A stretch of DNA of 8,512 nucleotides from an archaeon (GCA_035387745.1 DAOOON010000028.1:1-8512); one strand, 5' to 3'. Counted from the first letter of the stretch, positions 6,266 to 6,337 are shown. Translations and numbers: made by a program. The notes: generated by a model from the letters alone, not told the origin.

Positions 6266-6337
6266 TGGACTCCGCGAGATTCGAACTCGCAACCCCTTCC
6301 GTGCTAGGGAAGTGCTCTACCGTTGAGCCAGAAGCCC
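6266..6337 (-). tRNA. tRNA-Ala(AGC), an A34 anticodon
   Basis: GGGCTTC-TG-GCTC-AACGGTA-GAGC-A-CTTCC-CTAGCAC-GGAAG-GGGTT-GCGAG-TTCGAAT-CTCGC-GGAGTCC-A. It has G3:U70 and every stem is intact. It differs from the UGC copy at 5 of 72 positions, one of which is position 34. Confidence 0.9.

Follow-up and report, generated by a model that had tools for sequence, protein, structure and literature searches.

Does an archaeal lineage maintain an alanine tRNA whose gene encodes adenosine at the wobble position, and which codons would such a tRNA read? This question is raised by a stretch of archaeal DNA of 8,512 nucleotides (GCA_035387745.1 DAOOON010000028.1:1-8512), in the following called the window, in which positions 6266-6337 of the minus strand are occupied by an intact tRNA-Ala gene with a genomically encoded A34 (anticodon AGC). 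All ANN anticodons, i.e. those beginning with adenosine, have been reported to be missing in Archaea (PMC8007984), and a survey of 10,517 archaeal tRNAs contains 3 ANN tRNAs, all of them uncharacterised predictions (bioRxiv 10.64898/2026.05.15.725136). The literature agrees here with the initial annotation of the window, according to which archaea are normally without A34 tRNAs, and no description of an A34 tRNA conserved within an archaeal lineage appears to exist so far. From the comparisons presented here, the gene probably encodes a functional, expressed alanine tRNA which is derived from a TGC gene, replaces the GGC isoacceptor as reader of GCU and GCC and carries an unmodified A34.

ARAGORN called the gene as tRNA-Ala with the anticodon agc, and the Rfam tRNA model RF00005 matched it over the entire model length (62.6 bits, E 4.5e-12). 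On the minus strand it reads GGGCTTC-TG-GCTC-AACGGTA-GAGC-A-CTTCC-CTAGCAC-GGAAG-GGGTT-GCGAG-TTCGAAT-CTCGC-GGAGTCC-A. The anticodon loop C32-U33-A34-G35-C36-A37-C38 is enclosed by the stem CUUCC/GGAAG; loop, stem and the pair G3:U70 had been read identically in the initial annotation. Besides G3:U70 the gene has the discriminator A73, U8, A14, G18G19, A21 and the T-loop GTTCGAATC, and together with U33, a purine at position 37 and a match to GTTCRANYC in the T-loop it possesses all the positions by which membership of the cloverleaf family was judged. The minimum-free-energy fold is the cloverleaf (-27.2 kcal/mol), with a U6.G67 wobble as the sole blemish in the stems. The gene comprises 72 nt, with a D-loop of 7 nt, and does not encode CCA. 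ARAGORN, Rfam, the cloverleaf fold and the archaeal 16S context bear out the view that this is an intact archaeal tRNA-Ala with an AGC anticodon. It is the middle one of three tandem tRNA-Ala genes located just 3' of the 16S gene, the order on the minus strand being 16S, CGC, AGC, TGC (Table 1).

Contigs containing this trio were retrieved by exact-protein look-ups, successful with the patatin-like protein and the protein of 80 amino acids encoded nearby, and by pattern scans of JGI, NCBI, ENA and Logan assemblies; the contigs compared are labelled by L-numbers (L007, L076, L096 etc.). The AGC gene was found in at least 15 contigs of independent assemblies. They represent four alleles, and the lineages concerned, at least five at species level, all belong to a single genus-level group. 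The AGC sequence of the window was recovered unchanged in at least 10 independent contigs, and the three further alleles carry A34, too. The complete CGC-AGC-TGC trio was recovered from at least 12 samples with various assemblers, including MEGAHIT and SPAdes as well as the JGI and Logan assemblies, and the window itself is 99.99% identical to the end of a 62.8-kb JGI contig (Ga0116242_10000888).

A34 might be an artefact, caused by an error in sequencing or assembly or by the three paralogues having been collapsed into a chimera, since the tandem tRNA-Ala genes of the window are 80-93% identical and thus able to confuse short-read assemblers, and some 16S sequences at the locus look chimeric (e.g. 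L009, see below). This origin of A34 is refuted by the independent assemblies and hardly conceivable. The identical AGC gene was obtained by MEGAHIT, SPAdes, JGI and Logan assemblies alike, with A34 always linked to the private markers T6, C16, C24 and A58 (gene numbering) and to flanks of its own, and diverged alleles of other species have A34 as well. In addition, a pattern for the G34 version of this backbone, requiring A37 and this T-arm, had no match in 241 million metagenome records, while the same backbone pattern with any base at position 34 retrieved the AGC gene in six contigs. A sequencing error at position 34, by which the finding could have been overturned, is thereby excluded.

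The 16S sequences of the AGC-bearing contigs are 96.1-99.9% identical, values which have to be read with the possibility that some 16S sequences at the locus are chimeric assemblies. The 16S of L009 (GCA_029560575.1, 3877-5371) is 97.4% identical to that of the window and 99.3% to that of L096, its flanks being 98.6% identical to the window, which points to a chimeric assembly or to rRNA recombination between species. The flanking protein-coding DNA of the AGC-bearing lineages shows about 75-88% nucleotide identity, and a neighbouring protein of 248 amino acids is 33-80% identical across the group.

Against this divergence the tRNA genes themselves are well preserved. The four AGC alleles vary at alignment columns 6, 16, 24, 31, 32, 37, 58 and 66, with A34 present in all of them; the variable sites include positions 32, 38 and 67 of the standard tRNA numbering, and the pair 6-67 occurs as U.G, U-A and C-G. 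Standard pairs are formed in every stem cell (315/315) of the 15 distinct trio-family sequences, five stem pairs show double-sided changes, and pairing drops to 36-53% in controls with slid partners. G3:U70 and A73 are invariant (15/15). The intergenic spacers of the trio (58-171 nt) are heavily diverged and barely alignable. Since the stems and A34 are kept whereas the spacers diverge freely, the pattern is, as far as sequence conservation can tell, that of a working tRNA rather than of a decaying copy. The spacer between the CGC and the AGC gene (window 6388-6444, minus strand) contains G+C-rich hairpin-like segments (ccggtttcgctcgggttgg, gcgcgc...gcgcttatgcgc) in AT-rich surroundings, which are partly conserved in L096 and L076.

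Which gene gave rise to the AGC copy was examined in more distant relatives, reached via the synteny of a flap endonuclease gene and the tRNA backbone pattern. Their 16S genes are 85-94% identical, and none of the five relatives has the trio. In four of them a lone tRNA-Ala(TGC) gene follows the 16S gene, without a 23S gene (L065, 16S 94%; L080 and L095, 90%; L063, 89%); the TGC genes of L080 and L095 already show the unusual short-D-loop body of the trio. In the fifth (L061, 16S 86%), tRNA-Ala is absent after the 16S gene and a CGC gene is located upstream of it. With the wobble base left aside, 2-8 differences separate the AGC alleles from TGC copies, compared with 10-15 from CGC copies. Because its body is nearer to the TGC copies than to the CGC copies, the AGC gene is, judged by these distances, a tandem duplicate of the 16S-linked TGC gene that acquired a T34-to-A change in the ancestor of the genus-level group. 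The parentage assumed in the initial annotation, which had described the gene as a recent T34-to-A derivative of the UGC copy, is supported by these distances; its recency and its origin by a single base change are not, as the gene of the window differs from the neighbouring TGC gene at four positions beyond the wobble base and is common to at least five species-level lineages. Derivation of the gene from a bacterium, a eukaryote or a virus was rejected as well, its body being that of the archaeal neighbours.

The best indication of what the AGC tRNA reads comes from a sister species. Contig L076, whose 16S is 99.6% identical to that of the AGC-bearing L096 (flanks about 75-79%), has the arrangement CGC-GGC-TGC at the same locus and lacks the AGC unit together with its promoter box. 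The GGC gene of L076 shows 3-4 differences from the CGC gene and has G37 in place of A37. In an alignment of the spacers (L076 2657-3178 with L096 6410-6882, the regions compared for tRNA turnover) its 3' spacer is homologous to the spacer following the CGC gene in L096. This alignment led us to reject the GGC gene of L076 as an orthologue of the AGC gene; it belongs to a unit derived from the CGC gene, and no AGC unit exists there. Because L076 has no AGC unit but a CGC-derived GGC gene, AGC and GGC are, by this comparison, alternative and independently derived occupants of the slot for the GCU/GCC reader. No other observation speaks as strongly as this alternation for the AGC tRNA as the reader of GCU and GCC. 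It also suggests that the AGC-bearing genomes have no other GGC gene, and it lends support to the earlier proposal that the gene sits where a GGC isoacceptor would be expected. An Rfam search of about 67 kb of group sequence, i.e. part of the genome only, revealed no tRNA-Ala(GGC). In the outgroup L082 a GGC gene with a different body lies about 700 nt from the TGC gene; the position syntenic to it contains no tRNA in the group of the window.

The context of the three genes suggests that each of them is transcribed from a promoter of its own. The 17-mer TTTATATTTATTTCTTT occurs three times as an exact copy in the window, each time 33-62 nt upstream of one tRNA-Ala gene. Allowing up to 3 mismatches, it has 10 matches in the window, a number reached by none of 200 shuffled sequences, and related species have kept the box in front of their trio genes. 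These boxes would represent the TATA and B recognition element (BRE) regions of separate archaeal promoters. T-tracts follow the AGC and the TGC gene, and the tract TTTTCTTT is a putative archaeal oligo-T terminator. A candidate RNase P RNA near the trio (see below) was also counted among the points of expression context. The AGC gene is presumably expressed and its product aminoacylated.

In 10,490 codons from the group loci, alanine is encoded by GCA (60%), GCU (29%), GCC (9%) and GCG (3%). The preference for U-ending codons assumed in the initial annotation has to be corrected in so far as GCA, and not GCU, is the main alanine codon. Among the pyrimidine-ending codons, GCU exceeds GCC about threefold (156:48). 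The occurrence of A34 in the four-fold GCN box, in AT-rich loci with more GCU than GCC, is the genomic picture associated with the Mycoplasma tRNA-Thr(AGU) type. According to PMC11066159, U is the best pairing partner of an unmodified A34, and pairing with C is modest.

The following course of events would account for these observations. The 16S-linked tRNA-Ala(UGC) gene would have been duplicated in tandem together with its own promoter in the ancestor of the group, and the wobble base of the duplicate would then have changed from T to A. The CGC, UGC and AGC copies together may now form the alanine isoacceptor set, with the AGC tRNA acting as reader of the pyrimidine-ending codons in place of the GGC tRNA of other archaea. 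GCU would be read by a Watson-Crick A34:U pair; for GCC, the reader would be the UGC tRNA or, weakly, A34 itself. Since the GCN box is four-fold degenerate and misreading therefore harmless, cross-reading would still insert alanine, and the usual cost of A34 would be absent. A genome of approximately 25-30% G+C with its excess of GCU over GCC of about 3:1 may be a setting in which A34 is tolerated.

Several observations weigh against this interpretation. There are only four AGC alleles, and retention of A34 in them is by itself not statistically decisive. In the AGC allele of L075 (1330-1401) the otherwise universal U33 is replaced by C33 (loop UCAGCAA), and this allele may be decaying. L083 has the TGC gene alone at this locus; the CGC-AGC-TGC arrangement is consequently not obligatory, and the AGC copy would be either dispensable or relocated in L083. 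The G34 pattern described above was blind to GGC genes with another body or with G37 and missed the GGC genes of L076 and L082. Finally, a signature of GCC avoidance was sought in the codon usage and none was found: GCC makes up 24% of the GCY codons, and in other boxes (Pro, Thr, Val, Ser, Leu) 5-22% of the Y-ending codons end with C. Such a GCC frequency is to be expected if GCC were read efficiently, e.g. by an I34 (inosine at position 34) or a G34 tRNA.

It might be that the AGC gene is a redundant, near-neutral paralogue arising from recurrent tandem duplication and gene conversion in the array, while a canonical GGC tRNA encoded elsewhere does the work. The locus is indeed dynamic, with inserts in L059, L096 and L077 and the TGC gene alone in L083, the three copies of L075 evolve in concert and include the C33 allele, and the GGC gene of a different body in L082 implies that the ancestor had a separate GGC gene. 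This explanation seems quite unlikely to us, however, as the four alleles, from at least five species, have retained A34 and complete pairing with freely diverging spacers, no tRNA is present in the group of the window at the place of the L082 gene, and L076, which lacks AGC, has evolved a new GGC gene from CGC at the locus, a step that would have been needless if another GGC gene existed. Recent gene conversion is suggested in the L075 trio, where a single body is common to the three genes and the spacers are nearly identical.

Alternatively, A34 could be deaminated to inosine, either by a horizontally acquired TadA/ADAT2-like enzyme or by another archaeal enzyme, and I34 would then read GCU, GCC and GCA in the manner of the eukaryotic tRNA-Ala(IGC). 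It would fit this explanation that GCC shows no avoidance when set against other four-fold boxes, and the AGC gene replaces the G34 reader instead of being added to it, a pattern that is also seen where I34 is used (bioRxiv 10.64898/2026.05.15.725136). According to the same survey, TadA is encoded in 88% of the bacterial species with ANN tRNAs other than ACG, and Oenococcus and Streptococcus modify their tRNA-Leu(AAG). Archaea also deaminate a tRNA adenosine at position 57, inosine 57 being listed among their modifications (PMC8007984). On the other hand, a deaminase specific for A34 is not known from Archaea (PMC8007984; bioRxiv 10.64898/2026.05.15.725136). Among about 60 genes called in the group loci, a small part of the genome, none encodes a cytidine/deoxycytidylate deaminase Pfam domain. 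The other tRNAs of these loci (Glu-TTC, Gly-TCC, Tyr-GTA) are without A34, and a literature search on DPANN archaea and tRNA adenosine deaminases yielded nothing relevant. The substrate loop of bacterial TadA is U33-A34-C35-G36-A37 with the anticodon A-C-G. The AGC loop C-U-A-G-C-A-C does not match it, having G35 and C36, and thus departs from the TadA specificity, as generally known, at both positions. With regard to inosine 57, we know of no identified enzyme that makes it in archaea. Taken together, deamination of A34 seems rather unlikely. That the lineage makes wobble inosine in tRNA-Ala(AGC), as the first case in Archaea, by an unrecognised deaminase of acquired TadA-like or native origin, we likewise regard as unlikely. 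An unmodified A34 is favoured over I34 because no archaeal A34 deaminase is known and the anticodon is unlike the TadA substrate at positions 35 and 36.

Table 1. Features on the minus strand of the window around the three tRNA-Ala genes.
Feature	Position	Strand	Basis and remarks
Archaeal 16S rRNA gene	6710..8204	-	Rfam RF01959, 1349.5 bits, full model; upstream of the trio
tRNA-Ala(CGC), first gene of the trio	6445..6516	-	ARAGORN; Rfam 65.9 bits; short D-loop and T-arm common to all three genes
tRNA-Ala(AGC) with A34, middle gene of the trio	6266..6337	-	ARAGORN; Rfam tRNA 62.6 bits; cloverleaf minimum-free-energy fold
tRNA-Ala(TGC), third gene of the trio	6063..6134	-	ARAGORN; Rfam 64.8 bits; likely parent of the AGC gene, ancestral 16S-linked gene
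Promoter-like box TTTATATTTATTTCTTT	6533..6549	-	Upstream of the CGC gene; exact 17-mer
Promoter-like AT-rich box TTTATATTTATTTCTTT	6364..6380	-	43 nt upstream of the AGC gene; exact 17-mer
Promoter-like box TTTATATTTATTTCTTT	6179..6195	-	Upstream of the TGC gene; exact 17-mer
Related AT-rich box	8374..8390	-	3 mismatches; about 170 nt upstream of the 16S gene
T-rich tract TTTTCTTT	6251..6258	-	7 nt downstream of the AGC gene; read from the sequence

No Rfam match to a large-subunit (23S) rRNA was obtained anywhere in the window, the trio being followed by protein genes. These encode a protein of 80 amino acids, the membrane protein of 248 amino acids, a patatin-like protein, thymidine kinase, a DUF2666 protein and two DUF6498 proteins. 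The G+C content of the coding parts of the window is 23-32%, and that of the group loci 24-33% with the exception of L075 and L085, which are dominated by rRNA. On longer contigs the locus is accompanied by a flap endonuclease gene, whose best named relatives are from Ca. Iainarchaeum sp. (60% identity) and Ca. Diapherotrites archaea (46-47%). These belong to the phylum Iainarchaeota in the DPANN kingdom Nanobdellati, and the host would be an uncultured DPANN archaeon, Iainarchaeota-like according to this one marker protein. The organism is present in activated-sludge and related samples.

Some further observations were made at the locus. The stretch between 16S and tRNA-Ala is an insertion hot spot (L083 2750-3830; L059 13773-15332; L096 approximately 4750-6340; L077 1-100). 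The insert of L059 contains a gene for a protein of 519 amino acids with a match to Peptidase_M26_N and a faint one to Glug, and an open reading frame is found at the same place in L096 and L077; in L083 the place of the CGC and AGC units is taken by about 1 kb of inserted DNA carrying an antisense open reading frame. Between the genes for the patatin-like and the 248-amino-acid protein lies the candidate for a reduced archaeal RNase P RNA (window 4618-4854, minus strand, 237 nt). It spans the full model RF00373 with 62.9 bits (E 6.8e-16), below the gathering score of 84. Syntenic copies exist in L007, L001, L022, L096 and L059, and the copy of the outgroup L082 scores 96 bits. Positions 3-129 of the window (minus strand) hold a tRNA-Tyr(GTA) gene with an intron, seen as an insert of 57 nt in its anticodon loop (Rfam tRNA 47.2 bits). 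This gene was missed by ARAGORN and by Rfam in gathering mode, so that intron-bearing tRNAs of this lineage are easily overlooked. In the source contig (L007 10026-11015) a phage-type integrase gene is located just past this tRNA-Tyr, and a type IIG restriction-modification gene comes next; an element may have integrated here at the tRNA.

The absence of ANN anticodons and of a wobble deaminase in Archaea has been used as evidence of an ancient and strong selection against unmodified A34. An A34 tRNA kept across archaeal species, together with a newly evolved G34 in a sister species, would be a natural experiment on this rule. Should A34 be unmodified, a very AT-rich archaeon would tolerate it, and perhaps even favour it, in a four-fold box. 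If it is inosine, there would be an unrecognised I34 pathway in Archaea, and the switch from G34 to I34 that is typical of eukaryotes could arise independently within this domain. The locus also shows how a small genome may rebuild its isoacceptor set by duplication and anticodon change (UGC to AGC, CGC to GGC).

A scan for Ala(AGC) genes among 185,579 species representatives of GTDB, requiring a GCTC/GAGC D-stem so that all counts are lower bounds, revealed at least 46 stretches. The archaeal ones were L015 and L022, which belong to the group described here, L052 (Promethearchaeota) and L045. L052 is a 9-kb contig binned as Promethearchaeota (Bin_342). At 3863-4466 it contains a tight array of CCA-encoding tRNAs, with A34 in an Ala(AGC) and a putative Cys(ACA), flanked by genes for ClpB, a histone deacetylase and an M20 peptidase; the array may be bacterial or mis-binned. 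The stretch 370-440 of L045, a contig of a metagenome-assembled genome (MAG) named as 'Methanobrevibacter', was rejected as a tRNA-Ala(AGC), as neither ARAGORN nor Rfam finds a tRNA there. By eye it resembles a mammalian short interspersed nuclear element derived from tRNA-Ala, and it is probably contaminating host DNA. About half of the GTDB matches come from 'MAG: bacterium 9be6d20c' (L013-L058, contigs CBDBZY01...), where contigs between 50 kb and 1.6 Mb in length carry many copies; this MAG may be a eukaryote-like or mislabelled genome.

The closest analogue is the replacement of G34 by A34 in AT-rich bacteria, as in tRNA-Leu(AAG) of Lactobacillales and tRNA-Thr(AGU) of Mollicutes such as Mycoplasma capricolum. 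Bacterial ANN tRNAs replace GNN tRNAs in four-fold boxes, in genera of 60-70% A+T (bioRxiv 10.64898/2026.05.15.725136). The archaeal gene shares with them the four-fold box, the replacement of the GNN and not of the UNN or CNN tRNA, the retention across a genus, the AT-richness and the predominance of U-ending over C-ending codons. It differs from them in the amino acid, alanine, and in its host, which belongs to a domain reported to be without ANN anticodons and TadA/ADAT. Moreover, the AGC gene arose from a UGC paralogue by tandem duplication and not by a G34-to-A change in a GGC gene.

With the eukaryotic cytosolic tRNA-Ala(AGC), which becomes IGC through ADAT2/ADAT3, the gene has in common the anticodon, G3:U70, A37 and the replacement of the GGC gene. 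Unlike this tRNA it has an archaeal body that is paralogous to the UGC and CGC neighbours, with a length of 72 nt, a D-loop of 7 nt and no encoded CCA. The eukaryote-like matches of the pattern scan are sequences unrelated to the AGC gene. Compared to the canonical archaeal tRNA-Ala(GGC), the gene occupies the same place in the isoacceptor set, where the sister L076 has GGC; it is distinguished by its wobble A, and the CGC-derived GGC gene of L076 with its G37 is no orthologue by descent. The locus also departs from the archaeal 16S-tRNAAla(UGC)-23S spacer, as three tRNA-Ala genes with promoter-like boxes of their own follow the 16S gene, and protein genes stand in place of the 23S gene.

Remolding of tRNAs by anticodon switching is known from eukaryotic genomes, animal mitochondria and yeast experiments. 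The archaeal locus resembles these cases in that a paralogue with a point change in the anticodon replaced the original isoacceptor, and this happened at least twice at the locus (UGC to AGC, CGC to GGC). In contrast to the known cases, it took place in a 16S-linked archaeal tandem array with a promoter-like box for each unit, and one of its products belongs to an anticodon class that is otherwise avoided in this domain.
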